Shown one piece after another: positions 1,297 through 50,879 of a stretch of 64,000 nucleotides of DNA. Each line of letters starts with the position of its first letter. The stretch's first letter is position 1. The DNA comes from Patescibacteria group bacterium (GTDB taxonomy: Bacteria; Patescibacteriota; JABMPQ01; JBFLZX01), in contig JBFLZX010000001.1 in the NCBI GenBank assembly GCA_040756075.1, positions 28,787 to 92,786 of the forward strand, given 5' to 3'. A model generated the notes under the pieces. It ran no database searches, was not told the DNA's origin, and saw only the letters and a program-made list of their open reading frames with translations. A program made the translations under genes and the position numbers.

Positions 1297-2034
1297 TTGA
1301 AACTATCAGTTATAATACCAGCGCATAACGAAGAAGATTGTATTGAGAAAACTGTCTTAGACATTTCTGAAGAATTAAAAAAAGAATCTATAGATAACGA
1401 AATAATAATTGTTAATGATAACAGCACTGACAGAACCGTCTCTATAATTAATAATTTAGCTCAAGAGTATAATGATATACGGTTGATTAATAGGCAATCA
1501 CCTAATGGATTCGGCAGGGCAGTTAGAGAAGGGTTAGATAATGCAACCGGAGATGTGATTATAATTGCGATGGGTGATGCTTCAGATGACCCTAGGGATA
1601 TCGTGAAGTATTTTTATAAAATTGAAGAAGGGTATGACTGTGTTTTTGGTTCAAGGTTTATTAAGGGTGCCATGACAAGAGATTATCCATTTCATAAATT
1701 GATTGTAAACCGCATAGCAAATACTTTTTTAAGAATCCTTTTTTTAACCAAACACAATGATTTAACCAATGCTTTTAAAGCTTATCGTAGGGAAGTTATA
1801 GACGCTATTAAGCCGATAGAGTCGCTTTATTTTAATATTACCATAGAACTGCCCCTAAAAGCACTTATAAGAGGCTATTCTATTGCTTCAATGCCGACTA
1901 ATTGGTATGGCCGTAAAAGTGGTGTTTCTAAATTAAAAATTAAGGAAATGGGCAGGCGTTATCTTTATACAACACTATATCTATGGTTACAAAAGACACT
2001 TATTAGGGATGATATAAGGGATAAAAGGAAATGA
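1297..2034 (+). CDS. GT2 glycosyltransferase, DPM1/ArnC-like polyprenyl-phosphate sugar synthase
   Basis: The N-terminus SVIIPAHNEE, followed by IIVNDNSTD and a DxD-type region, matches GT-A fold dolichyl/undecaprenyl-phosphate sugar synthases. A TTG start sits right after the upstream stop. Confidence 0.7.
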   Translation: MKLSVIIPAHNEEDCIEKTVLDISEELKKESIDNEIIIVNDNSTDRTVSIINNLAQEYNDIRLINRQSPNGFGRAVREGLDNATGDVIIIAMGDASDDPRDIVKYFYKIEEGYDCVFGSRFIKGAMTRDYPFHKLIVNRIANTFLRILFLTKHNDLTNAFKAYRREVIDAIKPIESLYFNITIELPLKALIRGYSIASMPTNWYGRKSGVSKLKIKEMGRRYLYTTLYLWLQKTLIRDDIRDKRK

Positions 2035-3428
2035 ATATTATTTTGATTAGTCCTTCGCAAGGGGATGTCTATGGTAATTTCCAACCGCCTTATCATCCGT
2101 CGATAGGTTTAGGTTATATTGGGGCTGTTTTGGAGAAACAAGGCCATAATGTTAAGATAATTGATATTGATGCCGATAGAGTTACAGAAGACGATTTAAG
2201 AAAAAGAATAGTTGAGGATAAAATAGATTTAGCAGGGATTATGGTTTTAACTCCGATATTTACCAATGCCGTTAGAACCGCGCATATAATAAAAAAGTGT
2301 TCTAACGTTAAGGTTGTATTTGGGGGGATGCATCCGACTATTATGCCTCAAGATTGCTTAAAGATTAAAGATGTGGATTTTGTTGTCATTGGTGAAGGCG
2401 AGCAAACAATTTTAGAGCTAATTAATCAAATTCAGGGAGAGGGAAAATTCAAAGACGTTAAAGGCGTTGGTTTTAAGAAAGACGAAAAGATAATAATTAA
2501 TGAAAATAGACCATTAATCGAGGATTTGGATTCATTACCTTTTCCGGCAATGCGTTTATTTAATAATATAAAATATACTTACCCAGATGCAATTGCAAGC
2601 CCTACATTTCCGATTGTTACAAGTCGTGGTTGCCCTGGAACATGTACATATTGTAGTGCGCAAAGTATGTTTGGCAGGAAATTTCGGGCTCGTAGTGCGG
2701 TAAATATTGTTGATGAAATCGAAAAATTGATAAAAGATTTTGGTGTTAAAGAAGTGCATATTTGGGATGATAATTTCGTAACCATAAAAGAAAGAGTTTT
2801 AAAAGTAAGAGATGAAATTAAAAAGAGAGCTATTTTTATTAAGTTTGCATTTCCTAATGGGGTTAGGGCAGATTTTTTGGATAAAGATGTGATTGGCGCT
2901 CTCAAAGAAATGGGGACATATAGCATAGGCCTTGGTATAGAATCTGGGAATAACGAGATTTTACGGCGAGTCAAAAAAAACATTAATTTAGATAAGATTA
3001 AAGATGCTGTTAAGCTTGCGAAAAAATCAGGTATTGAGGTTTGGGGGTTTTTTATGCTTGGCCTTCCCGGTGAAACAAAAGAAACCGTCAATAATACTAT
3101 AAAATTTGCTATTGATTTAGATCCTGATATCGCAAAATTTCATATTTTAAAGCCTTATCCTGGGACGGAAGTTTTTAAAGAATTCGTAAATAATAATTTA
3201 ATTGATGATTTTGATTTTTCTCATTATGGTATCCATACAGGGCCGGTACACCATCTTAAAAATTTAGCCGTAGAGGAAATGAATTATCTTCAGCGCAGTG
3301 CTTATAAAAAATTTTATTTTAGGCCTTCAAAAATAATTAATCAAATAATAAGATTAAAATCATTCACTAGAATAAAATTAAATATAAAAGTATCGCTATC
3401 TGTTATAAGGAAAGCATTTACTAAATAA
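2031..3428 (+). CDS. B12-binding radical SAM protein (class B radical SAM, likely methyltransferase or related)
   Basis: The N-terminal roughly 150 aa are cobalamin-binding-like. The radical SAM cluster motif is RGCPGTCTYCS (CxxxCxxC). There is an ATGA overlap with the upstream gene. Confidence 0.75.
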   Translation: MNIILISPSQGDVYGNFQPPYHPSIGLGYIGAVLEKQGHNVKIIDIDADRVTEDDLRKRIVEDKIDLAGIMVLTPIFTNAVRTAHIIKKCSNVKVVFGGMHPTIMPQDCLKIKDVDFVVIGEGEQTILELINQIQGEGKFKDVKGVGFKKDEKIIINENRPLIEDLDSLPFPAMRLFNNIKYTYPDAIASPTFPIVTSRGCPGTCTYCSAQSMFGRKFRARSAVNIVDEIEKLIKDFGVKEVHIWDDNFVTIKERVLKVRDEIKKRAIFIKFAFPNGVRADFLDKDVIGALKEMGTYSIGLGIESGNNEILRRVKKNINLDKIKDAVKLAKKSGIEVWGFFMLGLPGETKETVNNTIKFAIDLDPDIAKFHILKPYPGTEVFKEFVNNNLIDDFDFSHYGIHTGPVHHLKNLAVEEMNYLQRSAYKKFYFRPSKIINQIIRLKSFTRIKLNIKVSLSVIRKAFTK

Positions 3429-3489
3429 TTATTTATTAATCCTAAACACTCAAGATGTCTCAAAATTTTTTATTCATGAATTTTAAAGA

Positions 3490-5007
3490 ATGAAGCATAC
3501 TTTGTTTACTTTATTTTTATTATCTTTTTTGCTTGGGATTATTCTGCGCATGATAAATATTAATCAACCATTGTTGGAATATAATACTACCAGGCAAGCC
3601 CAAACCGCTATGATAACTAAGAATTATATTTTAAATAAACTTCATTTTCTATATCCTACTATTTACAATTATTCCGGTGAGAATCCCACTTATCTTATGC
3701 AGGAATTCCCATTAATTACTGCCCCAGTTGCTATCGCATGCTATTTAATAGGTACAATCCCTGATTGGCTTCTTAGAATCCCTAGCTTGTTTTCATTTAT
3801 AATGGCTACATTTTTTTTATTTAAATTGGTAGAGTTATGTTGGAATCGAAAATTAGCAGTAATTTCTTCTTGTATTTTTATTTTTAGCCCTCTATCTATA
3901 TTAATGAGTAGAACATTTCAACCAGAAATGCCAATGCTATTTTTTCTATTAATGATGTTTTATTTCTTATGGAAATGGGTTTACGATGACAATATTTATA
4001 GTCTTATTTTTTCAGCATTCAGTTTTATGTGCTGCATTCTTTTGAAAGTAACGAATCTTTATTTGTTGCTGCCAATTTTATATATTATCTTATCAAATAA
4101 GAAAAAAATAGATTATCGCCTATTTAATTTTATAGTAGCATTTGTTTTAGCTTTTTTACCTGTATTATGGTGGTATGGTTATCATTGCCCAAAGATACGG
4201 CATTTGTTCCCAAACCAATACGATGTTATCTTTAATATTCACTATCAGACTATTTTTACTAAAAAATATCTAACAAATTTCAATTTTTATTTAAGGTTAA
4301 TTGTTCATATAATCAGGACAGCTTTTACTCCTTTAGTTTCCATTGCATTTATAATCGGATTATTAATTCGCCATAGGACTAATGAAGAAAAATTTTTATT
4401 TTTTTGGCTCTGCGGGGTAATTATTTTTTTATTATCTTTTCCTTCGGTAACGGACCATGAATATTATAAATTAGTAATTGTTCCAATAGGCGCCATATAC
4501 GCGGCTAGAGGCGTAAGTATCTTTTTAAATAAAAATAAAAATTATTTTAAATTAATAATAATTTATTCTAGTATACTTAGTTTTATTTTCTCGCTTAGGA
4601 TAGTTTATCCGTATCTTATAAATAAGGCTTATTTTAAAAATACCTTGCTTGCTGGAAAAGTTATAGATGAGGTTTCTTTTAAAGATGATTTGATTGTTGT
4701 TGCGCATGAATCCGGATCCGGATTGCTTTATTATTGCAATAGGAGAGGGTGGGGATTGAAAATTCCTGCGATTATTAAAAAGCGATGGGATAAAGATGCT
4801 TCTCCTAAGAATTTAGATGAACAAAACTATGAAGCTATTACTTCGTTAGAAGATTATCGGAGAAAAAATGCAAAGTATTTCGTTACCGTAGACATGGAAA
4901 AATTTAATAAAAGCCATAAATTCAGAGAATACATGTTTAAAAATTATATTTTATTAAGACATGAACCAGACAAATATATTATTTTTAAATTAGAAAACAA
5001 GAGGTAA
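3490..5007 (+). CDS. Polytopic membrane glycosyltransferase, GT-C fold (GT39/ArnT/PMT_2-like)
   Basis: About 11 TM helices with a C-terminal soluble domain. The architecture resembles 4-amino-4-deoxy-L-arabinose transferase and protein O-mannosyltransferase family members. Confidence 0.5.
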   Translation: MKHTLFTLFLLSFLLGIILRMININQPLLEYNTTRQAQTAMITKNYILNKLHFLYPTIYNYSGENPTYLMQEFPLITAPVAIACYLIGTIPDWLLRIPSLFSFIMATFFLFKLVELCWNRKLAVISSCIFIFSPLSILMSRTFQPEMPMLFFLLMMFYFLWKWVYDDNIYSLIFSAFSFMCCILLKVTNLYLLLPILYIILSNKKKIDYRLFNFIVAFVLAFLPVLWWYGYHCPKIRHLFPNQYDVIFNIHYQTIFTKKYLTNFNFYLRLIVHIIRTAFTPLVSIAFIIGLLIRHRTNEEKFLFFWLCGVIIFLLSFPSVTDHEYYKLVIVPIGAIYAARGVSIFLNKNKNYFKLIIIYSSILSFIFSLRIVYPYLINKAYFKNTLLAGKVIDEVSFKDDLIVVAHESGSGLLYYCNRRGWGLKIPAIIKKRWDKDASPKNLDEQNYEAITSLEDYRRKNAKYFVTVDMEKFNKSHKFREYMFKNYILLRHEPDKYIIFKLENKR

Positions 5008-5702
5008 TGATGCAATTAAGCCAAGAGAAGATGGTTGGGCGTTTAGGTAGATTCTTAGGCGATGTGCAGAGAATCCAGAACGAGGATATAATTAAACAAA
5101 TATCAGGAAATACTGTATTAGATGTTGGTTGTGGATATGGCGTTTTAACTAAACAATTAGCAGAAAAAAATAAATATAAATTGTTATTAGGAATAGACAG
5201 TGATACATTAGCTATAAATATAGCACGCAATTTATATAAAGATATTAATTTTAAAGAAATTGATTTATATGCTTTAAACCCTCTGCATAATAAATTTGAA
5301 ACCATAATTTTTCGTGAATCAATTCATCATTTAAATGTTGATAAGGCTTTATCATTCGCTAGGCAGATTTGTTCTAAAGAAATTATAATATTTGATCCAA
5401 ATCCTAATTTACTTCTTCGAATGTGTAGATATTTAATTGCGCACAAGGATGATGAAGCAAGATTAGGCGATATTATCACAAGTTGTAATAAAAACCATCT
5501 TAAAATAGAATCTATCAAATACAACAGTATCCTGGCCTTTCCTTTTTCTGGTGGATTTGTCGGAAAAGAAATATGCCCAAATATAAAATTTATTAAGAGG
5601 TCGATAATTTACATAGATTCTGTTTTAGTTAAATTCTTGCATTTCTTAGGTATTGATAGATATTTTTGTTGGCGTTATTTGGTAAAAATAAATATAAATT
5701 AA
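5007..5702 (+). CDS. Class I SAM-dependent methyltransferase
   Basis: SAM-binding motif I is VLDVGCGYGVLT, with an acidic residue at the end of beta2 (GIDSD). Confidence 0.7.
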   Translation: MMQLSQEKMVGRLGRFLGDVQRIQNEDIIKQISGNTVLDVGCGYGVLTKQLAEKNKYKLLLGIDSDTLAINIARNLYKDINFKEIDLYALNPLHNKFETIIFRESIHHLNVDKALSFARQICSKEIIIFDPNPNLLLRMCRYLIAHKDDEARLGDIITSCNKNHLKIESIKYNSILAFPFSGGFVGKEICPNIKFIKRSIIYIDSVLVKFLHFLGIDRYFCWRYLVKININ

Positions 5703-13769: not shown

Positions 13770-13782
13770 AAGATATTTGTAA

Positions 13783-14553: not shown

Positions 14554-14555
14554 AT

Positions 14556-16993: not shown

Positions 16994-17083
16994 GGTTATT
17001 TCATTTAGTTAGCTGAAGTATAATAATTATTAGTTTAAGTTGTTATGATGCTAATAATAGTTAATGATAGCTAAATATAGTTA

Positions 17084-17111
17084 TTGACAATTGATAAGCA
17101 TATGGTATACT
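17084..17111 (+). promoter_or_regulatory. Sigma70-like promoter (TTGACA-16 bp-TATACT) driving the long downstream operon
   Basis: TTGACA at 17084..17089, a 16-nt spacer, and TATACT at 17106..17111. It lies in the only sizeable intergenic gap (16994..17164), about 55 nt upstream of the ATG at 17165. Confidence 0.5.
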
Positions 17112-17164
17112 TATAACATATATTCTCCAAGTATTTTCTTAGTTAATATATAATTATTTTATAT

Positions 17165-19318: not shown

Positions 19319-19320
19319 TT

Positions 19321-20421: not shown

Positions 20422-20422
20422 T

Positions 20423-36098: not shown

Positions 36099-36105
36099 TT
36101 TTGTT

Positions 36106-37608: not shown

Positions 37609-37669
37609 TTTTTATCCAGTTGTTGAAATATTAAGAATAATAATAGTGTTTGGAAAGGAGTTTTGGATT

Positions 37670-38395: not shown

Positions 38396-38420
38396 ACGAA
38401 ACCACATCGAAGGAGAAAAA

Positions 38421-39176: not shown

Positions 39177-39185
39177 AAGGAGAAA

Positions 39186-39968: not shown

Positions 39969-39972
39969 CTAT

Positions 39973-41478
39973 ATGAGAAAGAAAATTAAAATATTACTCG
40001 TTTATCCAAACATCCCAATGATGTTAGTAACGCCTTTATCAATTGCTATTTTTACTTGGATTTTAAGGCAGGAAGGTTTTGAAGTAGATCTTTTCGATAC
40101 TACTCAATATGGGGAGGGAAATTTAAGTAGCCCACAGAATCGCGTCAAGTACCTTCAGGCGCGCAATATATTTACTGAAAAAAATTTAATACTTTTAAAA
40201 TCTAACAGTATGGAGAATGATTTTAAGTTAAAACTGGAAGCATTTAAACCAGATATTTTACTCTATTCATTTACCGAAGATGCCTTGGGGCGGGCTTTGC
40301 AGCTATTGCGAGTTTCAAATACTTTCAACATACCAACAGTTGTTGGCGGTGTATTAGCAACTGCTGATCCGGATTGGTTAATTTTATTTCCGGAAATTTC
40401 AATGATTGGAGTTGGAGAGGGGGAAGAAGTTGTTAGAGAGTTGGCTTTACGATTATCTCAAGGAAGAGATTTTAACGATATAGCTAATTTATGGATTAAA
40501 TTAAGTAATGGATCTGTATTGCGTAATCCAATCAGGCCCTATGTTAATTTAACCGATTATTTCACAGATTTTTCTCTATTTGATGAAGTTCGTTTTGAGC
40601 GCCCAATGGGAGGTAAAATACACCGTGCTTTGCCGATCGAAACATATAGAGGATGCCCTAATAGCTGTACTTTTTGCAATTCACCGATGCATAACAGGAT
40701 TGCCAAGGAGCATAATTGGGTGTATCTTCGGCGTAAATCAATAGAGTGGATGAGAAAGGAAATAAAACATCTTCTGGATGATTATAACGTAAATCTTTTA
40801 TATTTTATAGACGATAGCTTTTTAGCTAGACCATTAAACGAAATCAAAGATTTTATAGAAATGTATAAAGAATTTCGTGTTCCTTTTTGGTTTAATACCC
40901 GTCCCGAGGATTGCGCTCTGGATATATTAAAAAAACTCAAAGAAGTAGGGCTTTTTAGAGTTTCTTTTGGCGTTGAGTCTGGAAATGCACATTTTCGTGA
41001 AAAATATTTAGGTAGGAGGGTTTCAAATGAAAAATTATTGCATTATTTCAATATTATTAGCGATAGTGGCATCGATTTCAGCATTAATTACATAATAGGC
41101 TTTCCTTTTGAAACGCGCGAAATGGTTTTTGATAGTATACGTCTCGCTAAGCAGATAAAGGGATACGATTCTATTACTGTAAGTATTTTTACCCCTTATA
41201 GGGGGACGATTTTACGGCAGGCAGCAATAGAAGCCGGATGGCTTGATCCTGACGCTTTAACAACACATACCACCGCTAGTTCAATATTTAAGATGCCTTT
41301 ATTTACATCACGGCAAATAGATGGTCTTATACGGACATTTCCTTTATATGTTGAGTTTGAAGAATCTCTTTGGGCTGAAATAGGAAAGGCAGAGATGTTT
41401 GAGCCTGGAGGAGAAGAGATATTGGCTAAATATTCAGAATTATATAAAAAACGTAGGTGGGAGAAAAAGAGAGCATAG
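39973..41478 (+). CDS. B12-binding radical SAM protein
   Basis: N-terminal B12-binding-like domain. Radical SAM motif YRGCPNSCTFCNSP. Confidence 0.75.
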   Translation: MRKKIKILLVYPNIPMMLVTPLSIAIFTWILRQEGFEVDLFDTTQYGEGNLSSPQNRVKYLQARNIFTEKNLILLKSNSMENDFKLKLEAFKPDILLYSFTEDALGRALQLLRVSNTFNIPTVVGGVLATADPDWLILFPEISMIGVGEGEEVVRELALRLSQGRDFNDIANLWIKLSNGSVLRNPIRPYVNLTDYFTDFSLFDEVRFERPMGGKIHRALPIETYRGCPNSCTFCNSPMHNRIAKEHNWVYLRRKSIEWMRKEIKHLLDDYNVNLLYFIDDSFLARPLNEIKDFIEMYKEFRVPFWFNTRPEDCALDILKKLKEVGLFRVSFGVESGNAHFREKYLGRRVSNEKLLHYFNIISDSGIDFSINYIIGFPFETREMVFDSIRLAKQIKGYDSITVSIFTPYRGTILRQAAIEAGWLDPDALTTHTTASSIFKMPLFTSRQIDGLIRTFPLYVEFEESLWAEIGKAEMFEPGGEEILAKYSELYKKRRWEKKRA

Positions 41479-41479
41479 G

Positions 41480-42391
41480 ATGAAAATATTAATCACTGTA
41501 TCTAGTTTCGGAAAATATGACCAGACTCCTTTGAATATAATAAAAAAACGTGGTTATGAAATTAAGCTTAATCCTTATGGAAGAAAACTGACTAAGGAAG
41601 AAACGATATCACTTTATCAAGATGATGTATGTGGAGTTATCGCGGGCCTTGAGATAATAGATAAAGAAGTTATTAATAATGCTAGTAAGCTTAAGGTTAT
41701 ATCTCGTTGCGGGACAGGTATCGATAACATTGATATAAAAGAGGCTAAGCGCAAAAGGATCAAAATTTATAATACTCCAGATTCACCATCGGATGCAGTA
41801 GCAGAATTAACTACTTGTTTAATATTAGCTTTATTGCGTCAGGTGACATTAACAGATAGAGAAATACGGCGCCATGAATGGAATAAACGCATAGGATCGC
41901 TTCTTAAGGGGAAGAAAATAGGTATTATTGGCATGGGGAAAATAGGTCGAAAGGTTGCTAAGATAATCGAGGTATTCGATACGGATATTTTCTATTATGA
42001 CCCCAATGTTAATATTCATAAATATAAAAAGGTAAGTTTGAATAAATTATTAGAAGCAGCAGATATTGTTAGTCTTCATGCAGCATATTTAAAGAAGAAT
42101 AAGCATCTGATAGGCAAGAGGGAAATAGAGAAGATGAAAAAAGATTCTTTTTTAATTAATTGTTCCAGAGGTGAAATAGTAGATGAATGCGCTCTTTATT
42201 CAGCTCTTAAAAGAGGCGCATTAAAAGGAGCGGGTTTAGATGTATATGCAGATGAGCCTTATCATGGGCCATTTGCAGAGCTAGATAACGTTATTCTTAC
42301 GCCCCATATAGGTTCTTATACTAAGGAAACGCGTATCCAGATGGAGATAGAATCTGCGAAAAACTTATTAAAAGGCATGGGTAATGGTTAA
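41480..42391 (+). CDS. D-isomer-specific 2-hydroxyacid dehydrogenase (PGDH/GDH-like), NAD-dependent
   Basis: GIIGMGKIGRKVAKI Rossmann motif and a C-terminal catalytic His region (ILTPHIGSYT). The start is taken at the ATG 41480, right after the upstream stop. Confidence 0.7.
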   Translation: MKILITVSSFGKYDQTPLNIIKKRGYEIKLNPYGRKLTKEETISLYQDDVCGVIAGLEIIDKEVINNASKLKVISRCGTGIDNIDIKEAKRKRIKIYNTPDSPSDAVAELTTCLILALLRQVTLTDREIRRHEWNKRIGSLLKGKKIGIIGMGKIGRKVAKIIEVFDTDIFYYDPNVNIHKYKKVSLNKLLEAADIVSLHAAYLKKNKHLIGKREIEKMKKDSFLINCSRGEIVDECALYSALKRGALKGAGLDVYADEPYHGPFAELDNVILTPHIGSYTKETRIQMEIESAKNLLKGMGNG

Positions 42392-43052
42392 ATATAAATT
42401 TTTATCTCATAAAATAGAAAAATATATGCCGTCTTATGGCAAAATAGATAGGGTGTGGACAAGGAGAACGAAGTCGATTCAAAAAGGGGATTCCTGCAAT
42501 ACTTTTGAGATAAGAATACCTAATCATATAGGGACGCATGTCGATGCCCCAGCTCATTTTTTTGAATCTGCTTTAAAAATATCAGATTTTTCTGCTAGGG
42601 AATGCATATTTAATGATCCCTATATTTTAAATTGCTCTTTAAAAAATAATGAACTTTTAGACATTCGACATCTAAAAAATATTCCCAAAAAAAAGATTGA
42701 TATTTTACTTTTTAAGACTAATTTTCAGAAATTTAGAGGCCAAGATGTATATTTTTTAAATAATCCTGGTATTTCTTATGAAGTGCCATTATGGTTAAAG
42801 AAAAATTTTCCTTCGATTAAAGCCATAGGTATTGATTTTGTATCTATATCATGTTTTAAAAGAAGGAAAACTCTGCAGGGAGTTTATGCCCACAGGGCCT
42901 TCCTTAATCCAAAATCATCCCGTTCAATATTAATCATTGAAGATATGGACTTATCAGGTAAATTGCAGAATTTAAAACAAGTAATTATCTCACCATTTAG
43001 GTTTACAGAGATAGATAGCTCTTTTTGTACTATTATCGGTATTTTTAAATGA
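42384..43052 (+). CDS. Putative cyclase-family metal hydrolase (kynurenine formamidase-like fold)
   Basis: HIGTHVDAPAHFF matches the cyclase-family H-x-G-T-H-x-D-A-P-x-H motif. Confidence 0.55.
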   Translation: MVKYKFLSHKIEKYMPSYGKIDRVWTRRTKSIQKGDSCNTFEIRIPNHIGTHVDAPAHFFESALKISDFSARECIFNDPYILNCSLKNNELLDIRHLKNIPKKKIDILLFKTNFQKFRGQDVYFLNNPGISYEVPLWLKKNFPSIKAIGIDFVSISCFKRRKTLQGVYAHRAFLNPKSSRSILIIEDMDLSGKLQNLKQVIISPFRFTEIDSSFCTIIGIFK

Positions 43053-43702
43053 TAAGAACTATTATTTTTGATTTTGATGGCGTTATTGCGGAATCAGTTG
43101 ATATTAAAACAAGAGCTTTTATATATTTATTTAAAGATTATCATAAAAGCATTCAAGATAAAGTAAAAAAATTACACCTTAATAATGGAGGAATGTCTAG
43201 GTACAAAAAGTTTAAAATTATATATGAAAAATTTTTGAATAAGCGGCTCGATAAAATTACTTCTAATCGACTAGGGAAAGATTTTTCGCGTTTTTGCTAT
43301 CAGGGAGTTATTAAAGCGCCGCTTGTTAAGGGCGCAAAGCAATTTCTTAAAAAATCATATAAGAAATATAATTTGTATATTGTATCTGGTACGCCGGAAT
43401 CAGAGATAAAAAGAATCATTAAAGAAAAAGGCCTTAGCCGCTATTTTCGGAGTGTTTATGGTTCGCCGAAATATAAGGGAGAACTTTGTAAGGCGATAAT
43501 AAGAAAAGATAAGATTTTACCTCGAGAGGCTGTTTTTATCGGCGATTCAGTTAATGATTTAAAGGGTGCAATGGAAGCTGGATTATATTTTGTTGCTAGG
43601 GTGATAAATAGAAATAACCCTCTTTTAAGATTGAGGCCAAAATATAAGTTGAAGGATTTATGTAATCTTAAAAGAGTTATAATAAAATTAAATAGGGAGT
43701 AA
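43049..43702 (+). CDS. HAD-superfamily hydrolase/phosphatase
   Basis: IIFDFDGVIAES motif I, and FIGDSVNDLKGA motif IV region. Confidence 0.7.
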   Translation: MIRTIIFDFDGVIAESVDIKTRAFIYLFKDYHKSIQDKVKKLHLNNGGMSRYKKFKIIYEKFLNKRLDKITSNRLGKDFSRFCYQGVIKAPLVKGAKQFLKKSYKKYNLYIVSGTPESEIKRIIKEKGLSRYFRSVYGSPKYKGELCKAIIRKDKILPREAVFIGDSVNDLKGAMEAGLYFVARVINRNNPLLRLRPKYKLKDLCNLKRVIIKLNRE

Positions 43703-43708
43703 CATATT

Positions 43709-44614
43709 ATGAAAGCGACTGTTTTTGGAGGGGCGGGTTTTTTAGGTAGGCATATTGTTAATAAACTATCAAAAATGGGTTATTTTATAAAAGTTTTGGA
43801 TACTAATACCTCAAATAGAATTAATGCAAAAAATATTGAATACATAAAAGGAAGCATCTTAGATGATAAGGCAATAAAAAAAGCATTAGAGGGTAGTAAT
43901 GTAGTTTTCCATTTAGCGGCTTTAGCTGATATCGATAGGTCATCAAAGGAGCCGATAAATACTATAGATATCAATATCGGCGGGCTTGTAAGGTGTCTTG
44001 ATGCGGCAAGTAAATTAGGGGTAAAAAGGTTTATTTATGCTAGCTCTGTTTATGTCACAGGGACTATGGGTTCATTTTATAGAGTATCTAAGCTTGCCGG
44101 AGAAGAGTTGTGTAAGGTTTATCATGAAGAATATGGTTTACCGTATAGCATAGTAAGATACGGTTCTTTGTATGGGGAAGATGCTAATGAATGGAATTTT
44201 ATCAGTAGGATATGCAAACAACTTATAGAGAATAAAAAGTATGTGTATTATGGCAATGGTAAAGAGATCAGAGAGTTTATTCATATTGTCGATGCGGCAG
44301 AAGGAAGTATTAAAGTGAGCAGGGATGAAAAATTTGAGAATAAGACAGTACTTATAACGGGTCATCAAAAGATGAACATGGAAGAGTTTTTTGAGCTTGT
44401 AAAGGAAATTATGAATGGCGAAATTGAAATAAGATATTCGATGGATATTGAGTATCGAGAAAGGCATTATAATGTTACACCATACAGATTTCAACCAGAA
44501 GTGCCTCTTAGGATAAATATGGATCAATACATAGATATAAATGAAGGTATAATTGCGTGCTTGGCAAAAGCAAAAGAGAATTTAGAGAGTAGATATGAAA
44601 AAAAAACAGTATAA
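43709..44614 (+). CDS. NAD-dependent epimerase/dehydratase (extended SDR)
   Basis: ATVFGGAGFLGRHI Rossmann motif and a YxxxK pair (YRVSK). Confidence 0.65.
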   Translation: MKATVFGGAGFLGRHIVNKLSKMGYFIKVLDTNTSNRINAKNIEYIKGSILDDKAIKKALEGSNVVFHLAALADIDRSSKEPINTIDINIGGLVRCLDAASKLGVKRFIYASSVYVTGTMGSFYRVSKLAGEELCKVYHEEYGLPYSIVRYGSLYGEDANEWNFISRICKQLIENKKYVYYGNGKEIREFIHIVDAAEGSIKVSRDEKFENKTVLITGHQKMNMEEFFELVKEIMNGEIEIRYSMDIEYRERHYNVTPYRFQPEVPLRINMDQYIDINEGIIACLAKAKENLESRYEKKTV

Positions 44615-45953
44615 AATAATTTTTTTAGCCCATTCCAATAATGACATAGACCATTTTTTGCCAATAATAAACGGTTTAAATAAGCAAACTATATTTAACC
44701 CTGAAATACTTTTTTTGAGATTCGAAGAAGAGGCTGTAAGCAATAGACTGCATAAAGAATTAATTAAAAATCTTTCAGTTGGTAAGCGGTCTGCTTCCGA
44801 TTTCTTAGAATGGCCTTTTATTTCCAGGATCCTATTCTTTATTATGAAGTATTGTTATATACGGACGAAAGGCAGAACTCTAAAAGATTTTATTAGAGGA
44901 AAAGATATAGTAAGAATTTTTTATAAGGGAGTGTATATATTACTCGATAGACTATTAAAGAGATATTGCGAACAATTATTTACCGTAGCGGCTATTAATA
45001 AAATAATGCAGAAGATTGCGCCAGATCTTGTATTAATCGATCCACAGCTTATTCAATTAGTACCTCCATTTTCAGATTTAAGATCTTATTTATCATCACA
45101 GATAGTTCAGGCTTGTAAATATAAGAGGATACCGGTTTTTATGGTATCCCATGGGGTAGAAATAATGTATGTAACACATAAAGACCACAAAATTGATGAA
45201 GCCCTAGTTTATAAACCGGATGTTTTTGGCTTGTGTAATGATAAAGATGATTTAGGTGTTAACGGGATTATCAGTAATAATGTTAGAAAAGTAATTTTGG
45301 GAGATTTAAGGTATGATAGGCGCTGGGTTGAAATACTAGAGTCTACAGCAAAAAAGATTTATAACATAAATAAACCTATTGAGAAAATTATCATCCTTTA
45401 CTTAGTAGGAAATCTTAGATTCTTGAATGATAAAAAATATGAAAAAGATATTCATAAAGACATAATATCCATACTTGATAATTATAGAAATGTAGAATTA
45501 TGGATAAAAATGCATCCTCGCGTTATAGAAGATATTGATGTGGGCGTAGCGATTAATAAGGACATATCATCAAGGATAAAGATATTTAGGAATGAGATTG
45601 ATACCAATGCATTGATACCGCATGCCGATATTTTTATATCTACTTTTTCGGGTGTTCTTTTTCAGGGTATAATGAAAAAGAAGCCGGTTATTTTCTATCA
45701 AAGATGGAGAGAACGCATGGATCATCCTATAAAAACTATTTTTGATGACAGTTACTATGTCATAAAGGCGATGAATAACGAACAGTTAAAAGAAAGTATA
45801 GCAGCTATTTTAAATTTAAAGCATATTGATGATGAAGAAGCCGATAGATTTTATAGACAGGCTGTTTGCGGCGGTATAGCAAGAGACGGCAATATTATAA
45901 ATAATTATGTAGATGAAATAAGAAATATAGTTTTAGAAAGGGCAAATGGTTAA
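44595..45953 (+). CDS. TagB/TagF/KpsC-family GT-B transferase, paralogue of 32492..34330
   Basis: C-terminal block KMHPRV ... FISTFSGVLFQG ... KPVIFYQR, the same K-x-HP / S-x-S / P-V-I-F pattern as 32492. Confidence 0.4.
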   Translation: MKKKQYKIIFLAHSNNDIDHFLPIINGLNKQTIFNPEILFLRFEEEAVSNRLHKELIKNLSVGKRSASDFLEWPFISRILFFIMKYCYIRTKGRTLKDFIRGKDIVRIFYKGVYILLDRLLKRYCEQLFTVAAINKIMQKIAPDLVLIDPQLIQLVPPFSDLRSYLSSQIVQACKYKRIPVFMVSHGVEIMYVTHKDHKIDEALVYKPDVFGLCNDKDDLGVNGIISNNVRKVILGDLRYDRRWVEILESTAKKIYNINKPIEKIIILYLVGNLRFLNDKKYEKDIHKDIISILDNYRNVELWIKMHPRVIEDIDVGVAINKDISSRIKIFRNEIDTNALIPHADIFISTFSGVLFQGIMKKKPVIFYQRWRERMDHPIKTIFDDSYYVIKAMNNEQLKESIAAILNLKHIDDEEADRFYRQAVCGGIARDGNIINNYVDEIRNIVLERANG

Positions 45954-46728
45954 GGAAGATATCGCAGAAATAACAAAAGAAGCATGGGTTAATAATTGGA
46001 AGGAGCACAGTGTTAAAGAAGTTCTACAAATATTCGAATATACTCGTGTTCAAAGATTGCTTAGTATAATGAAGCTAACTCTTCCTAAAGACGGCAGTAT
46101 AATCGAAGGAGGATGCGGCCTTGGGCCGTGGGTGATAAAATTAAGAGAACTAGGTTATGATATGGTAGGGATTGATTATGATGCCATATCAATTAATAAA
46201 TTAGGAGTTTATGATAAAAAAATTCCTTTAGCTGTCTCAGATATCGAAAATATCCCATTTAAAAACAGTCATTTTGTTGCGTATATATCCTTAGGGGTAT
46301 TAGAGCATTTTCATGAAGGACCGGAAAAGGCGATTAGCGAGGCCCAACGTATTTTAAAACCAGGAGGGCTATTTTTTGTAGTGGTGCCTAATATGAGCAT
46401 TCTTCTTAGATTAAAACTGCCTATACAAAAAGTTAAGCAGATTAAAATTTTGAGAAAAATATTCAGAAAAAAACAAAAAATATTTTATTATGAGCGTTAT
46501 TTTAAAATAAATGAAATCAAGCACCTATTAGAAAAATCTAACTTTGATGTTATGCGTATTTTTCCATTCGATCATATTTTTAGTTTTGTTTCTTTTTCGA
46601 GTGTATTTAGAAAAAAAGGGACCTATGATGGCGAAAATAACCTTGCGATTAAGTTTGCCGATTTTTTTAGCAAGATTTTGCCTTGGCAGACAGCCGGATC
46701 AATTATATTAATCGCAAAAAAAACATAA
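45946..46728 (+). CDS. Class I SAM-dependent methyltransferase
   Basis: IIEGGCGLGPW motif I and ILKPGGLFFVVVPN. Confidence 0.65.
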   Translation: MVKEDIAEITKEAWVNNWKEHSVKEVLQIFEYTRVQRLLSIMKLTLPKDGSIIEGGCGLGPWVIKLRELGYDMVGIDYDAISINKLGVYDKKIPLAVSDIENIPFKNSHFVAYISLGVLEHFHEGPEKAISEAQRILKPGGLFFVVVPNMSILLRLKLPIQKVKQIKILRKIFRKKQKIFYYERYFKINEIKHLLEKSNFDVMRIFPFDHIFSFVSFSSVFRKKGTYDGENNLAIKFADFFSKILPWQTAGSIILIAKKT

Positions 46729-46740
46729 AAGGGGATAAAA

Positions 46741-47682
46741 ATGAAACTTATAATTCAAATACCTTGTTATAACGAAGAAAAAACACTTCCTTTGGTTATT
46801 AACGCATTACCTAAGCAAATTAATGGCATAGACAAAATTGAAGTTTTAATTATTAATGATGGCAGCACAGATAATACGATAAATATTGCAGGGAACCTTG
46901 GTGTTGCTCATGTATTAGATTTACCTCATAGGGGCTTAGCTGAGGCATTTAGGAGGGGATTAGAAAAATGCCTTATTCTTGGCGCAGACATTATAGTTAA
47001 TACAGATGGGGATAATCAATATAAAGGAGAAGATATTCCGCGTTTAATAGAACCTATTTTAAAAAGGAAAGCAGATATGGTGATAGGATGTAGGAATATT
47101 TTAGCAATCAAACATTTTTCTTATCTTAAAAAATTACTACAAAAAATTGGCAGTTATTTTGTAAGAAAGTTTTCTGCAACTAAGATTCCTGATGTAACTA
47201 GCGGTTTTAGGGCATATTCACGAAATGCCGCCTTAAGGCTGAATATATTTTCTAGCTATACCTATACATTAGAAACAATAATTCAAGCCGGGAAGAAACA
47301 AATTCCCATGTCTTTTATAAAAATAGATACTAATGGAAAACTGAGGGAATCAAGATTAATAAAAAATATATTTTTTTATATATTAAGGTCAATAGCTACA
47401 ATTTTGCGTATTTATCTCATGTACGAACCTATGCGCTTTTTTATAAAAATAGGTTCAATTTTTATATTAGGCTTCGCTTTAATAGGTGCCCGGTATTTAT
47501 ATTTTTTCTTTTTTGGGCTTAAGCGCAGTGGCCATTTGCAATCTCTTATTTTGGCTGCAGTGTTTGTAATCATAGGTGTTCAACTTGTTTTTATTGGATT
47601 TTTAGCAGATATCATCGCAGCAAATAGAAAATTATTAGAAGAAATTCTTTATAGACAAAGAAAAGAACAGTTTAAAAATTAG
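46741..47682 (+). CDS. GT2 polyprenyl-phosphate sugar synthase with C-terminal membrane anchors (DPM1/GtrB/PpgS-like)
   Basis: IQIPCYNEEKTLPLV, LIINDGSTDNT and NTDGDNQY. The C-terminal roughly 90 aa contain two TM helices. Confidence 0.7.
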   Translation: MKLIIQIPCYNEEKTLPLVINALPKQINGIDKIEVLIINDGSTDNTINIAGNLGVAHVLDLPHRGLAEAFRRGLEKCLILGADIIVNTDGDNQYKGEDIPRLIEPILKRKADMVIGCRNILAIKHFSYLKKLLQKIGSYFVRKFSATKIPDVTSGFRAYSRNAALRLNIFSSYTYTLETIIQAGKKQIPMSFIKIDTNGKLRESRLIKNIFFYILRSIATILRIYLMYEPMRFFIKIGSIFILGFALIGARYLYFFFFGLKRSGHLQSLILAAVFVIIGVQLVFIGFLADIIAANRKLLEEILYRQRKEQFKN

Positions 47683-48755
47683 TGGAAAGAAAAAGAATAT
47701 TATTAATAAGCAGAAAATATCCGCCTATGATTGGCGGTATGGAAACTTACACAAAAAATTTATTAAGCAATCTATGTTTATCATACGATGTAGATACAAT
47801 ACTACTTAATAAGAAACAATTTCATCTTATTTGGTTTTTGCCGTATGTTTTTATAAAGAGTTTTTTCTTAAGTTTACGGCATAAATACAGTGTTCTGTAT
47901 ATTTGTGATGCCTTATTGTCGCCTTTAGGCTTAATTATAAAATCAATATTTAATATAAAAACGATTGCGACTGTTCATGGTTTAGATGTTACTTATCCAA
48001 ATTTTTTATATCAAAAAATAGTGCCCTTTTCTTTGTCAAAACTAGATTATTTGGTATGTGTGAGCAATAATACAGTTAGCGAATGTATTAAAAGAGGTAT
48101 TTGTGCATCAAAGTGTATATTTATTCCAAACGGTGTTAATATTAATGAGTATTATTTAGAGCAATCTAAAAATGATGTTCTTGAGCAGCTTAAAGGAAAA
48201 ATGAAACATGATTTTAATAATAAAAAGATATTGCTTACTACGGGGCGTTTGATAAAAAGAAAAGGCATGGATTGGTTTTTGAAAAATATATTTATGCAAT
48301 TAGGGCCTGATTTTATCTATTTTGTAAGCGGCGAAGGACCACTAAAGAGGGACTTAAGGCGTATTATCGATAAACAATCTCTAAAAAATAAAGTTTTTTT
48401 ATTAGGTAAGGTTGATAGAAATACACTAAAGCTTCTTTATAACTCTGCGGATGCCTTTATTATGCCCAATCAAATTATAAAGAGTGACCCTGAAGGTTTT
48501 GGTATTGTTGCATTAGAAGCAGCCAGTTGTGGCGTACCAGTAATTGCTAATGCCGTAGACGGCATAAAAGAGGCAGTCTTAGATGGCAAAACAGGATGGT
48601 TAATAAAGTATAATAATAAAGATGCCTTTATCGAAAAAATTATAAATCCAGGCCTTAGAGCTAATAGTGTAAGAGAAGCAATCCATTCATTTAGCTGGGT
48701 AAATTTAATAAAGAGCTATCAGAAAATTATAGAGAATAATTATGACGATTTATAA
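47682..48755 (+). CDS. GT4-family (GT-B) glycosyltransferase
   Basis: The C-terminal EGFGIVALEAASCGVPVIAN gives the E-x7-E motif of retaining GT4 enzymes. GTG start. Confidence 0.7.
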   Translation: MERKRILLISRKYPPMIGGMETYTKNLLSNLCLSYDVDTILLNKKQFHLIWFLPYVFIKSFFLSLRHKYSVLYICDALLSPLGLIIKSIFNIKTIATVHGLDVTYPNFLYQKIVPFSLSKLDYLVCVSNNTVSECIKRGICASKCIFIPNGVNINEYYLEQSKNDVLEQLKGKMKHDFNNKKILLTTGRLIKRKGMDWFLKNIFMQLGPDFIYFVSGEGPLKRDLRRIIDKQSLKNKVFLLGKVDRNTLKLLYNSADAFIMPNQIIKSDPEGFGIVALEAASCGVPVIANAVDGIKEAVLDGKTGWLIKYNNKDAFIEKIINPGLRANSVREAIHSFSWVNLIKSYQKIIENNYDDL

Positions 48756-49425
48756 GACTGCTAGCGAATCATCTCAACAAAGGTATTATTTTGATGCTTT
48801 TTATAAAAAAGAAAGAAAAAAAGTTTATTTTTACGAGCTAAATGATTTTAAAAACAGAATCGGAGAGACAGTAGAAAAAATAGTACTTTCTATAGGTAAT
48901 GGCAATAAAAGTCCTATTTTTGAAAATCAAATAATTTCTGATATTTCTTTTGAGGGGATAAAGAAGGTAGATTCAAGGAGAAAAGTTGTTTTAGATTGCC
49001 ATAGCCTTCCTTTTAAAAAAGATAGTATAGATATTATATTTGGGTGGCAAGTTGTACATCATTTAAGCTTGGATAAATTTTTATCACAAGTTAAATTTAC
49101 GCTCAAGAGTGGAGGAAAATGTGTTTTTGTCGATAATGGTTATTCGCCGCATTGGAGAATAATAAGAAATTTATTTCCTAAGAAAAAAAATGAACCGGCC
49201 GAAGATATGAGCGAGGATCTTATTTATCAAAAAATAGAAGAATACGGGTTTAAAAAATTCGATGCAAAAAGATATAATTTTTTTGCCTATTTATTCAGCA
49301 AAACATTTAGGGAGCTTGGTATTAATTTATCTATTAATATTTTAGGAGAAATAGATCAGTTTTTCTCTAGATGGGAATGGTTTAGAAGAAACTTAAGGAA
49401 TATGGTTTGGAGTTTTGAGAAATAA
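48742..49425 (+). CDS. Probable SAM-dependent methyltransferase (Methyltransf_11-like)
   Basis: LSIGNGNKS glycine-rich loop, DCHSLPFKKDSIDIIFGWQVVHHL and LKSGGKCVFVD blocks. Confidence 0.45.
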   Translation: MTIYKTASESSQQRYYFDAFYKKERKKVYFYELNDFKNRIGETVEKIVLSIGNGNKSPIFENQIISDISFEGIKKVDSRRKVVLDCHSLPFKKDSIDIIFGWQVVHHLSLDKFLSQVKFTLKSGGKCVFVDNGYSPHWRIIRNLFPKKKNEPAEDMSEDLIYQKIEEYGFKKFDAKRYNFFAYLFSKTFRELGINLSINILGEIDQFFSRWEWFRRNLRNMVWSFEK

Positions 49426-49427
49426 TT

Positions 49428-50879
49428 ATGAATTACAAAAAGATACTTTTGTTAAGGCCAAATTATAGAGAATCGCATTATGAATACACCGGTTTGCCTG
49501 CCGGCATAGGTTATATCTCAGAAGCATTGGATAAAGCAGGTATACCGCAGGAAGTCGTTGATATGTCATTGGGGTATAATTACACCTATCTTAAAAGGCG
49601 TATTGAAAAATTTAATCCGGATATGCTTGGCGTATCATTAATGAGCTTCAGGTATAAGGACCATTATGTTTTGATTAATAAGATCAAAGATGATTTTAAA
49701 AATTTAAAGATTATTGCTGGTGGGCCGCATATCTCAACTTTTAGAGAAAAATCTTTAATTGAATGTAATGCAATAGATTACGGGGTTACTTTGGAAGGCG
49801 AAGATGCAATGCTGGAACTTTGCATGAGGCAGGATAACCCTTTTAACATAAAAGGCCTCTTCTTTAAGAATCGCGACGGGATTGTTTATACTGGTGACAG
49901 GCAATTTAAGCAAAATCCGGATGTTTTTGGATTCCCGAAATATAAATTCTTTGAAAAAGATAAATATCCTAAATTTATTTCACTTTTAACTAGTCGCGGT
50001 TGTCCGTATAATTGTATATTTTGCCCTGTTCAGTTAACAATCGGTAAAAAATTACGCGTGAGGACTCCCGAGTCCGTATTAGATGAAATAAGTTATTGGT
50101 ACGAACAAGGAATAAGAGTTTTTAATGTGGTTGATGATAATTTTACTTTTTACAAACAAAGAGTTATAGATATTTGCGATGGCATCAAGAAAAGGAAGTT
50201 TAAAAATATAACTCTAAGTTGCAGAAATGGTATACGGGCCGATACCGTTGATAGAGAAACATTAAGATTTATGAAGGAAGTCGGATTTAACTATCTTGCC
50301 TTTGGTGTTGAAAGTGGTAGCGAAAAGATATTAAAGGTGTTAAAAAAAGGAGAAAATCTGTCTAAAATAAAAACAGCGATAAAAGATGCCTGTGAGCTTG
50401 GCTTTATGGTTACTTTATTTTTTATCATCGGCATGCCATACGAGACAGAGGAAGATGTTAGCGAATCATTAAAAATTGCAATGGAATTTCCTGTTTTTGA
50501 TGTCCGTTTTTATAATCCGATACCTTTTCCAGGAACGGAGTTATATGATTGGATAGCGAAGAACAATTATTTTAACAAATCCAACAGAGATTATTTAAAT
50601 AATCTTTCTCATTGGGTAAATAAGCCAATATTTGAAACACCAGAGCTACCTTTTGAAGCAAGAAAGGTTCTCTATGAGCGGCTCAATAAGATTATAAAAA
50701 AACATACTTTTAAAACAAAGATTTTATTCTTAAAAGATACAGAAAGGTTATTTACTAACCTTGGAATACCGCTTTTTTTAAGCAAATACCTGGCTAGAAT
50801 TTATTATACGCAGTTTTTTCAAATGTCTTTTATACAATCAGGATTAGCCGCAAAATTTAAAAAGTTTATTAAAAAATAG
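49428..50879 (+). CDS. B12-binding radical SAM protein
   Basis: N-terminal B12-binding-like domain. Radical SAM motif TSRGCPYNCIFCPV. Confidence 0.75.
   Translation: MNYKKILLLRPNYRESHYEYTGLPAGIGYISEALDKAGIPQEVVDMSLGYNYTYLKRRIEKFNPDMLGVSLMSFRYKDHYVLINKIKDDFKNLKIIAGGPHISTFREKSLIECNAIDYGVTLEGEDAMLELCMRQDNPFNIKGLFFKNRDGIVYTGDRQFKQNPDVFGFPKYKFFEKDKYPKFISLLTSRGCPYNCIFCPVQLTIGKKLRVRTPESVLDEISYWYEQGIRVFNVVDDNFTFYKQRVIDICDGIKKRKFKNITLSCRNGIRADTVDRETLRFMKEVGFNYLAFGVESGSEKILKVLKKGENLSKIKTAIKDACELGFMVTLFFIIGMPYETEEDVSESLKIAMEFPVFDVRFYNPIPFPGTELYDWIAKNNYFNKSNRDYLNNLSHWVNKPIFETPELPFEARKVLYERLNKIIKKHTFKTKILFLKDTERLFTNLGIPLFLSKYLARIYYTQFFQMSFIQSGLAAKFKKFIKK

Follow-up and report, generated by a model that had tools for sequence, protein, structure and literature searches.

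Five candidate glycan-tailoring radical SAM enzymes with B12-binding domains in a cell-envelope glycan locus of a Patescibacteria genome

A 64,000-nt stretch of DNA from a Patescibacteria (Candidate Phyla Radiation, CPR) genome, referred to here as the window, was analyzed for five genes that encode B12-binding radical S-adenosylmethionine (SAM) proteins. The genes were designated rS1 to rS5 in window order. They showed conserved linkage to specific sugar sub-pathways, fusion of homologues to glycan enzymes, and a pattern of presence and absence of the kind seen for tailoring genes. We consider it probable that the five are glycan-tailoring class-B radical SAM enzymes. The full statement, that they tailor nucleotide- or lipid-linked sugars through cobalamin-dependent radical chemistry, by C-methylation, is the leading explanation, and we regard it as evenly balanced. 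The five genes were identified by Pfam as follows:

2031–3428, + strand: rS1, 465 aa, motif RGCPGTCTYC
24716–26185, + strand: rS2, 489 aa, GTG start, motif RGCPFSCTYC, between PseC and PseI
28057–29508, + strand: rS3, 483 aa, motif RSCPGFCGFC
39973–41478, + strand: rS4, 501 aa, motif RGCPNSCTFC
49428–50879, + strand: rS5, 483 aa, motif RGCPYNCIFC

The gene content of the window was obtained from Pfam and NCBIfam profile scans of its approximately 55 large open reading frames (ORFs). The five ORFs, of 465–501 aa, each contained exactly one CxxxCxxC sequence. In all five, a B12-binding domain (PF02310) at the N-terminus and a Radical_SAM domain (PF04055) were found above the Pfam gathering scores. 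The PF02310 scores were 77, 63, 66, 33.3 and 54.6 bits for rS1 to rS5 (cut-off 32.1), and the PF04055 scores ranged from 40.7 bits (rS3, the weakest) to 100.7 bits (cut-off 29.5). With domain E-values of 5e-8 to 1e-28, the recurrence of this two-domain architecture in five of about 55 genes is not a chance pattern. A sixth radical SAM gene was not found among the 55 large ORFs scanned. The initial annotation had described the same five ORFs; its coordinates and motif strings were exact, and on re-inspection the cluster-binding motif was intact in each.

Four of the five genes overlapped the upstream stop codon or started within 4 nt of it, and rS4 started 5 nt downstream. Only the three cluster cysteines were invariant in the family alignments of rS2/rS4 (A1) and rS3 (A2). 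These proteins therefore carry no auxiliary cluster and are not of the SPASM type. A GEGE segment was invariant in the family alignments, and the B12-binding domain was kept across orthologues. The architecture of all five is that of intact class-B radical SAM enzymes, with a cobalamin-binding and a radical SAM domain, and they would probably use cobalamin itself.

It is extremely unlikely that the genes are decaying or non-functional remnants of horizontal transfer. Such decay would fit the absence of rS2 and rS5 from otherwise syntenic loci, and also the fact that two domains, the radical SAM domain of rS3 and the B12-binding domain of rS4, scored comparatively low in Pfam. The ORFs, however, were full-length and uninterrupted, with intact cluster motifs and in operon register with their neighbors. 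The closest syntenic relative of the window, locus L087, shared 54–83% protein identity with it over positions 17165–39968, and rS3, at 83%, was the best-conserved protein of the shared block. The rS1 family was held at 50–63% identity across domains of life, and the structural model of rS3 was confident (see below).

Pairwise identity among the five was 23–31%, reaching 31% for rS2/rS4 and rS1/rS5, with rS3 no more than 29% identical to any other. The five were placed in a neighbor-joining distance tree with 107 B12-radical-SAM ORFs from the loci fetched for comparison (L numbers), a tree without support values that was read for grouping only. Each window enzyme paired with an orthologue from another phylum, and never with another window enzyme. 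The low identities and these pairings indicated that there was no local family expansion. Recent paralogy was therefore rejected, and the term 'paralogous' in the initial annotation does not apply in that sense. The sequences are best read as five old, functionally uncharacterized subfamilies, each with cross-phylum orthologues in matching gene context.

Such enzymes had been called rare for a cell-surface glycan. In a scan of one genome per species, relatives of rS2 and rS4 were present in at least 590 species-representative genomes. Context was counted in 42 fetched loci of at least 15 kb outside one divergent clade, with homologues called by blastp against the window's own proteins, so that the counts are lower bounds. 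A homologue of NeuB or of a cytidine monophosphate (CMP)-transferase lay within 10 kb in 32 of the 42 loci, at least one sugar-pathway homologue was found in 38, and 17 contained two or more B12-radical-SAM genes. Tandem arrays were found on metagenomic contigs (L158, L134, L146 and L098), each with four to six such genes in full length. Given these multi-gene loci and arrays, five genes per locus represent the high end of a common pattern and are not singular, and the idea of a rare feature was abandoned.

Back-to-back arrays of five or six of these genes spanned positions 1745–10251 of L158 and 3473–11890 of L134. Giant proteins of 1,800–2,300 aa, in effect polyproteins of several radical SAM units, contained four to six separate matches to rS5 (P0436, P0461, P0474, P0488 and P0496). 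At positions 1–400 of L087 (minus strand), a different B12-radical-SAM gene, of 682 aa, preceded the sulfation module; the window has a GT-C glycosyltransferase (GT) gene in that place. Radical SAM genes get swapped in and out between related loci.

The first of the sugar pathways surrounds rS2 and rS3 and resembles the pseudaminic acid (Pse) pathway:

21574–23055, + strand: CBS plus short-chain dehydrogenase/reductase (SDR) dehydratase (Pfam), syntenic in L001 and L087
23076–23531, + strand: RmlC-like cupin (Pfam), syntenic in L001 and L087
23535–24719, + strand: PseC aminotransferase, 501 bits (cut-off 423.5), syntenic in L001 and L087
26202–27269, + strand: PseI-like nonulosonic acid synthase, NeuB Pfam 1.4e-75, PseI 318.5 bits (cut-off 340)
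27269–28060, + strand: CMP-sugar synthetase (Pfam CTP_transf_3)
29516–31051, + strand: PseG+PseH fusion (NCBIfam), PseG 126 bits (cut-off 153.6), PseH 93.8 bits (cut-off 93.1)
32492–34330, + strand: candidate nonulosonic-acid transferase, 612 aa, weak BFO_1060-family match

PseC and, barely, PseH were above the equivalog cut-offs, and PseG and PseI were below. PseF (26.5 against 205.7 bits) and PseB (49 against 408 bits) were not reached, and the CBS-SDR protein plus the RmlC-like cupin may take the place of PseB. On the basis of these profiles the pathway appears to be Pse-type but divergent.

An orthologue of rS2 at 59% identity (L001/L002) was located between a CMP-transferase gene and NeuB. 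The gene order there was CBS-SDR, cupin, DegT, methyltransferase, CMP-transferase, radical SAM, NeuB, sulfatase, a second B12-radical-SAM gene, WbqC and PIG-L. In Dehalococcoidia loci, the order was NeuB, radical SAM, CMP-transferase. In L087, DegT was followed directly by NeuB, without rS2. By this comparison, rS2 is an optional, accessory tailoring gene. It would provide an optional step in the Pse-type pathway, between the aminotransferase and the synthase and CMP-activation genes. Both rS2 and rS3 would act on an intermediate of the Pse-type pathway or on its end product, either free or linked to CMP. There is precedent for nonulosonic acids being tailored as CMP-sugars (PMC5378307).

The rS3 gene was associated with two others:

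31048–31785, + strand: WbqC-like protein (Pfam WbqC)
31796–32488, + strand: PIG-L-type N-deacetylase (Pfam PIG-L)

The rS3 family was small, with approximately 24 clusters at 40% identity or more and the next below at 33%, and rS3 was the least canonical of the five. WbqC followed rS3 directly or one gene later in the window and in L087, L088 (Deltaproteobacteria), L089, L092, L093 and L001, without exception among the loci that had an rS3 orthologue, and PIG-L was usually the next gene after WbqC. For the function of WbqC, no match in the PDB, no match in NCBIfam and no informative literature were found. We interpret rS3 as probably working as a unit with WbqC, usually together with PIG-L, in remodelling a nonulosonic acid, possibly at its N-acyl group. 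With these partners, the N-acyl group would be removed, replaced and modified.

With 29 family members as input, AlphaFold gave a confident model of rS3 (pLDDT 91.1, pTM 0.88). The best fold matches of this model in the PDB were the solved class-B enzymes MgmA, TsrM, CysS, OxsB, AprD4 and TokK (E 3e-20 to 1e-15), and MgmA, TsrM, CysS, OxsB and TokK matched across both domains. The fold search confirms class B; it does not separate methylases from non-methylases. MgmA (QCMT, PDB 9ccb) has about 450 aa and the same domain order, and gave the rS3 fold match of E 3e-20 (TMq 0.66). It is an established C-methylase that depends on B12 (PMC11796369, PMC12931638). Its substrate, on the other hand, is a protein side chain, a glutamine of methyl-coenzyme M reductase, and its identity is about 18%.

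A second CMP-activated pathway surrounds rS4:

36070–37608, + strand: Wzx flippase (Pfam)
37646–38395, + strand: CMP-transferase b, CTP_transf_3 (Pfam)
38421–39176, + strand: HpcH/HpaI-type pyruvate aldolase (Pfam), HpaI/GarL-like matches of 175–190 bits
39186–39968, + strand: KdsB-type CMP-ulosonate synthetase, KdsB subfamily model 292 bits (cut-off 255)
41399–44614, + strand: PGDH-like 2-hydroxyacid dehydrogenase, arylformamidase-like 'cyclase' hydrolase, HAD phosphatase and SDR epimerase/dehydratase (Pfam, NCBIfam)

The block from Wzx to KdsB (36070–39968) was syntenic in L087 and in the Omnitrophota locus L084. The latter was syntenic with window positions 36070–52022 and contained a 46% orthologue of rS4 with the same neighbors. 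In several phyla, at least 15 loci in all, these partner genes accompanied an rS4-like gene. The rS4 clade was large, with CTP_transf_3, 2-hydroxyacid dehydrogenase, HAD, SDR and 'cyclase' genes as neighbors and often NeuB or HpcH, and it included Methanoregula, Pelagibacter, Nitrospirota and the cultured Terasakiella sp. A23. We propose that rS4 belongs to this second pathway, of which the HpcH aldolase and the KdsB-type synthetase form the basis, and that its substrate would be the KdsB-type CMP-ulosonate or its precursor.

The class II aldolase of the HpcH/HpaI type adjoined an above-cut-off KdsB in a phylum without lipopolysaccharide, and the aldolase–KdsB pair was kept in L087, L084, L066 and L059. 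This suggests that a 3-deoxy-2-ulosonic acid is made by the aldolase, and not by KdsA or NeuB.

Fom3 acts on a cytidylylated (CMP-linked) substrate supplied by an adjacent cytidylyltransferase. It and PhpK are class-B enzymes, and rS2, rS3 and rS4 likewise adjoin CMP-transferase genes. Unlike in those systems, no phosphoenolpyruvate mutase or phosphonate genes were present in the window, and the PhpK-family (TIGR04479) scores were 72–125 bits against a cut-off of 600.

The rS1 gene was located in a cassette for lipid-linked sugars:

1297–2034, + strand: GT2 upstream of rS1 (Pfam Glycos_transf_2, 1.6e-31), same position in L090
3490–5007, + strand: GT-C (Pfam PMT_2, ArnT-like) downstream of rS1, same position in L090
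6390–8732, + strand: YfhO-type membrane glycosyltransferase of the rS1 cassette (Pfam YfhO), kept in L090

The start of rS1 overlapped the stop of the GT2 gene by 4 nt. The rS1 family was very tight, with at least 120 clusters at 50–63% identity, of 461–470 aa and a few outliers of up to 492 aa. It occurred in bacteria and in DPANN archaea, with members in Lentisphaerae, Omnitrophica, Victivallales and Pacearchaeota. L090, with an rS1 orthologue at 63% identity, repeated the cassette as GT2, radical SAM, PMT_2, YfhO and GT2, and in L005 the order around an rS1-like gene was methyltransferase, radical SAM, PMT_2. By analogy with the ArnC/DPM1-type GT2 enzymes that are paired with GT-C, the GT2 at 1297 presumably makes a polyprenyl-phosphate sugar.

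We propose that rS1 modifies such a lipid-linked (polyprenyl-phosphate) sugar, in the place that ArnD holds between ArnC and ArnT. As in ArnC-ArnD-ArnT, the cassette would consist of a loading GT2, a modifying enzyme and then an outward-transferring GT-C, and an ArnB-like/SDR fusion in the window was likewise accompanied by a GT2 and a GT-C of its own. ArnD is a deformylase and not a radical enzyme, so the analogy is one of pathway logic only.

The rS5 gene, together with a methyltransferase gene, was flanked by two glycosyltransferase genes. These three neighbors of rS5 are listed here with the other two class I methyltransferases; the initial annotation had correctly mentioned three such methyltransferases:

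47682–48755, + strand: GT4a, GT4 upstream of MTc (Pfam)
48742–49425, + strand: MTc, class I SAM methyltransferase (Pfam), directly upstream of rS5
50889–52022, + strand: GT4b, GT4 downstream of rS5 (Pfam Glycos_transf_1)
5007–5702, + strand: MTa, class I SAM methyltransferase (Pfam Methyltransf_25/31/12/11)
45946–46728, + strand: MTb, class I SAM methyltransferase (Pfam Methyltransf_23/11/25), 45% orthologue in L084

A 52% orthologue of rS5 in L082 had GT4 genes on both flanks, and an exhaustive search gave approximately 60 representative clusters at 40–48% identity. In L084, GT4a was followed directly by GT4b. By this comparison, MTc and rS5 form an accessory cassette inserted between the two GT4 genes. 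Homologues at 38–48% identity were fused to GT4 (P0368, P0379), GT2 (P0371, P0444), methyltransferase (P0361, P0373), methyltransferase plus GT2 (P0423, P0425) or DegT sugar aminotransferase domains (P0445). The fusion partners correspond to separate neighboring genes in the window (MTc-rS5-GT4b). We propose that rS5 acts with the methyltransferase and GT4 on a sugar of the growing glycan, during assembly. The sugar-tailoring idea of the initial annotation was thus borne out by gene context and domain fusions.

The window lies within a super-locus for cell-envelope glycans, which measures at least 64 kb and extends past both window ends. Its G+C content was about 31%, all large ORFs were on the + strand, and neighbors often overlapped by a few bases. 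The scans gave five GT-C/PMT_2 membrane transferases. Four or five proteins with a GT-C fold were placed at 3490, 12066, 15320 and 55064, with a GT87-like one at 94–1296 as the fifth. The other transferases were YfhO, six GT2, two GT4, a TagF-like protein and LPG_synthase_TM, and further genes encoded the Wzx flippase, a carbamoyltransferase, deacetylases and WecB. With the Pse-type and KdsB-type pathways, this content agrees with the glycan locus initially described.

54130–55071: LPG_synthase_TM (Pfam)

The same content bears on whether the window is a secondary-metabolite cluster, aminoglycoside- or antibiotic-like, in which the five would be GenK/GenD1-like enzymes of small-molecule tailoring. 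The characterized sugar-modifying class-B enzymes are known from aminoglycoside pathways, and AprD4 was among the best PDB matches. Gentamicin is cited in a review of class-B enzymes (PMC12931638). But no 2-deoxy-scyllo-inosose synthase, non-ribosomal peptide or polyketide synthase, or resistance genes were found among the 55 ORFs scanned. Present instead were Wzx, the five GT-C, YfhO, the TagF-like transferase, LPG_synthase_TM, a module that generates 3'-phosphoadenosine 5'-phosphosulfate (PAPS), and a nonulosonic-acid route for which there was also a candidate transferase. Homologous loci in other phyla had the same envelope-glycan make-up. A secondary-metabolite cluster is therefore very unlikely. 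The earlier remark that such tailoring is more typical of aminoglycoside or antibiotic pathways found no counterpart in the window, where the profile scans of about 55 ORFs showed nothing resembling an aminoglycoside or other small-molecule pathway. GenK, GenD1 and Fms7 may be comparable in class-B architecture, in a presumed sugar substrate and in C-methylation of an unactivated sugar carbon as the working model. They belong to actinomycete antibiotic pathways, whereas the present genes belong to envelope-glycan loci of uncultivated lineages.

For glycan tailoring by C-methylation, the following sequence of events is proposed. SAM would be reductively cleaved at the [4Fe-4S] cluster to give a 5'-deoxyadenosyl radical, which would abstract a hydrogen from an unactivated carbon of the sugar or N-acyl group. 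Methylcobalamin would then donate the methyl group. The sugars formed in this way would be branched or have an extended chain, and would diversify the cell surface. The use of cobalamin, the nature of the substrates and the transfer of a methyl group are inferred here. Most characterized class-B enzymes are methyltransferases (PMC12931638).

Several results weigh against this scheme. None of the five reached the cut-off of any curated NCBIfam family. The best-scoring family was HpnJ (TIGR03471), with 223, 122, 103, 91 and 164 bits for rS1 to rS5 against a cut-off of 577.6. Scores for BchE (TIGR02026) were at most 221.5 bits (cut-off 481), those for AprD4 (NF033070) were 101, 62, 59, 50 and 82 bits (cut-off 500), and those for MgmA (TIGR04014) were 44–155 bits (cut-off 360). 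The ladderane-associated family (TIGR04072) gave at most 157 bits (cut-off 360) and HpnR (TIGR04367) at most 127 bits (cut-off 650), and TsrM (TIGR04428), the KedN5 family and BzaD were all far under their cut-offs. Function can therefore not be transferred from these families. The nearest curated families for several of the enzymes, HpnJ, BchE and AprD4, are not methyltransferases. The B12-binding domain of rS4 was marginal, at little more than its Pfam cut-off. AprD4 has a B12-like domain yet uses no cobalamin, which indicates that the domain can persist without the cofactor. Patescibacteria are generally considered incapable of synthesizing cobalamin. Neither a cobalamin riboswitch (at Rfam gathering scores) nor a cobalamin transporter was found within the window, and there were no RNA elements at all at Rfam gathering scores. 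The lipid-related contexts of some homologues, described below, belong with these points.

The name 'BchE' that some sources give to homologues is an automatic label. The five enzymes stayed below the BchE cut-off, and no bacteriochlorophyll genes were found in the window by the profile scans.

These results leave room for the possibility that the five are glycan-tailoring radical enzymes of which some or all carry out chemistry other than methyl transfer. This could be diol dehydration and reduction (as with AprD4/AprD3), epimerization, ring contraction or rearrangement (HpnJ, OxsB) or oxidative cyclization (BchE), and the B12-like domain would be catalytic in another way or vestigial. AprD4 was the best PDB sequence match of rS2 (3e-17) and rS3 (3e-12), and HpnJ and BchE were the top curated families for rS1 to rS5. 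The 2-hydroxyacid dehydrogenase and SDR after rS4 could reduce a keto product as AprD3 does. Methylation capacity is already supplied by the three class I methyltransferases, and synthesis of cobalamin is unlikely in a CPR genome. On the other hand, none of these matches came near its family cut-off (for AprD4, the highest was 101 bits, with 500 required), and those of rS2 and rS3 to AprD4 were restricted to the radical SAM half. Four of the five enzymes exceeded the cut-off for the B12-binding domain by a wide margin (54–77 bits), and the conservation of this domain across orthologues with the invariant GEGE segment argues against decay. The cobalamin-dependent methylase MgmA was the best structural match of rS3 and the best PDB sequence match of rS1 (1e-29). 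Chemistry other than methyl transfer is thus a real but less favored possibility.

The comparisons with AprD4 and HpnJ are partial in any case. AprD4 (PDB 6fd2), a 1,2-diol dehydratase of apramycin biosynthesis, has an amino-sugar substrate and an N-terminal B12-like domain, but binds no cobalamin and does not methylate. HpnJ acts on a lipid-linked amino sugar, which it is thought to rearrange and not to methylate. Its substrate resembles the one suggested by the position of rS1 between GT2 and GT-C; the difference is that the scores were far below the cut-off and that hopanoid genes were lacking in the window.

Another reading is that some of the enzymes, especially rS1, act on a lipid, either the polyprenyl carrier or the head group or tail of a membrane lipid. 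Lipid-modifying radical SAM enzymes include HpnP, HpnR, HpnJ, a ladderane-associated B12 enzyme and tetraether synthase. HpnJ and the 'lipid biosynthesis B12-binding/radical SAM protein' family TIGR04072 were among the top curated matches, and LPG_synthase_TM is encoded in the window itself. A Pacearchaeota homologue of rS1 had a PAP2 gene on one side and a UbiA gene on the other. Lipid-head-group-like surroundings were also seen for a tight sister clade of rS2, with 25 loci:

Approximately position 10000 of each locus: sister-clade enzymes in L011, L015–L020, L023–L025, L028–L031, L033, L035, L036, L038, L039 and L041

This clade occurred in anammox Planctomycetes (Scalindua, Brocadia), Gammaproteobacteria and Alphaproteobacteria (Rhodospirillales). 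The enzyme was usually preceded by a gene for an AP_endonuc_2 TIM-barrel protein, often followed by LPG_synthase_TM, and genes for an NTP-transferase and a CDP-alcohol phosphatidyltransferase were near some loci. The clade may serve an uncharacterized lipid head-group pathway. Because of these two settings, the context cannot always be called 'sugar', which again counts against the proposed scheme.

In the window and its closest relatives, however, all five genes were flanked by sugar-pathway or glycosyltransferase genes. The rS5 homologues were fused to glycosyltransferases and to a sugar aminotransferase, rS2, rS3 and rS4 tracked NeuB and CMP-transferase genes, and the lipid-family scores were all far under their cut-offs. 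Action on a lipid is unlikely. The initial annotation had named membership of a family with a non-glycan role as something that would refute it. That role fits the sister clade of rS2, and none of the window's own five genes had such a context.

One sister-clade locus (L030) also contained Aminotran_5, NTP_transf_3 and CDP-alcohol phosphatidyltransferase genes. A Pacearchaeota locus (L091) had a GT2 plus Radical_SAM fusion of 679 aa near PAP2, UbiA and a Wzx-like flippase, and also held two B12-radical-SAM genes (features at 16568–17386 and 2983–4386).

For glycan tailoring by the five enzymes, the gene contexts define candidate substrates for five uncharacterized class-B subfamilies. At least three conserved modules (NeuB/CMP-transferase-rS2, rS3-WbqC-PIG-L and KdsB/HpcH-rS4-dehydrogenase) would bring cobalamin-type radical chemistry into nonulosonic-acid pathways, and two further modules, of rS1 and rS5, would act at a lipid-linked or glycosyltransferase stage. 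Nonulosonic acids (sialic, pseudaminic and legionaminic) shape the recognition of microbial surfaces. Knowledge of the enzymes that tailor them 'is scarce' (PMC5378307). In the literature searched, no link of radical SAM or B12 to nonulosonic or pseudaminic acid, NeuB, CPR or polysaccharide loci was found. The radical SAM genes of Campylobacter fetus were considered as a precedent and rejected, being annotated as MoaA/NifB/PqqE/SkfB-family and not B12-binding.

We suggest only tentatively that the rS2, rS3-WbqC-PIG-L and rS4 modules make previously unknown C-alkylated or radical-rearranged nonulosonic or ulosonic acids. If so, this would be a new layer of sialic-acid-like chemistry in CPR, DPANN, Omnitrophota, Dehalococcoidia, anammox bacteria and others. 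Decoration of the surface glycan in a genome-reduced Patescibacterium would then depend on cobalamin scavenged from a host or community, and a genome of this kind with five such enzymes raises the concrete question of dependence on external vitamin B12. The results point to uncharacterized class-B subfamilies that are embedded in nonulosonic-acid and lipid-linked-sugar pathways, widespread and never studied, and they suggest that sugars as yet unrecorded in glycan chemistry are present in many uncultivated lineages.

Other features of the window were also recorded. Each of the four or five GT-C-fold transferases had a small GT2 partner. The pairing implies several separate systems for decoration with lipid-linked monosaccharides in one locus of a very small genome. 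At 9889–16993, a fusion of an SDR (similar to the C-terminal part of ArnA) with an ArnB-like aminotransferase (726 aa) was followed by GT-C, GT2, GNAT and GT-C. The block resembles the Arn route and would produce a lipid-linked 4-amino sugar carrying an N-acetyl in place of a formyl group.

The sulfation (PAPS) module at 17165–21385 consisted of a fusion of a sulfatase-like domain with adenosine 5'-phosphosulfate (APS) kinase (717 aa), an ATP sulfurylase, and a truncated pyruvate kinase of 325 aa with the barrel domain only and no C-terminal domain. The trio was kept in L087 at 59–66% identity. The same three functions were found in a Nanoarchaeota locus (L037), but there the ORF matching APS kinase was short. 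Sulfotransferase activity may reside in the sulfatase-fold domain, and the pyruvate kinase-like protein may serve to recycle nucleotides. A sigma-70-like sequence, TTGACA-N16-TATACT, was located at approximately 17084–17111, just upstream of the module.

At 52015–54130, a full-length RtcB RNA ligase (281 bits) overlapped the GT4 stop codon inside the glycan operon, and a weak thymidylate-kinase-like protein came after it. At 61231–62787, a hexapeptide acyltransferase was fused to a GH88/pectate-lyase-like (alpha/alpha toroid) domain in a protein of 518 aa, which is an unusual combination.

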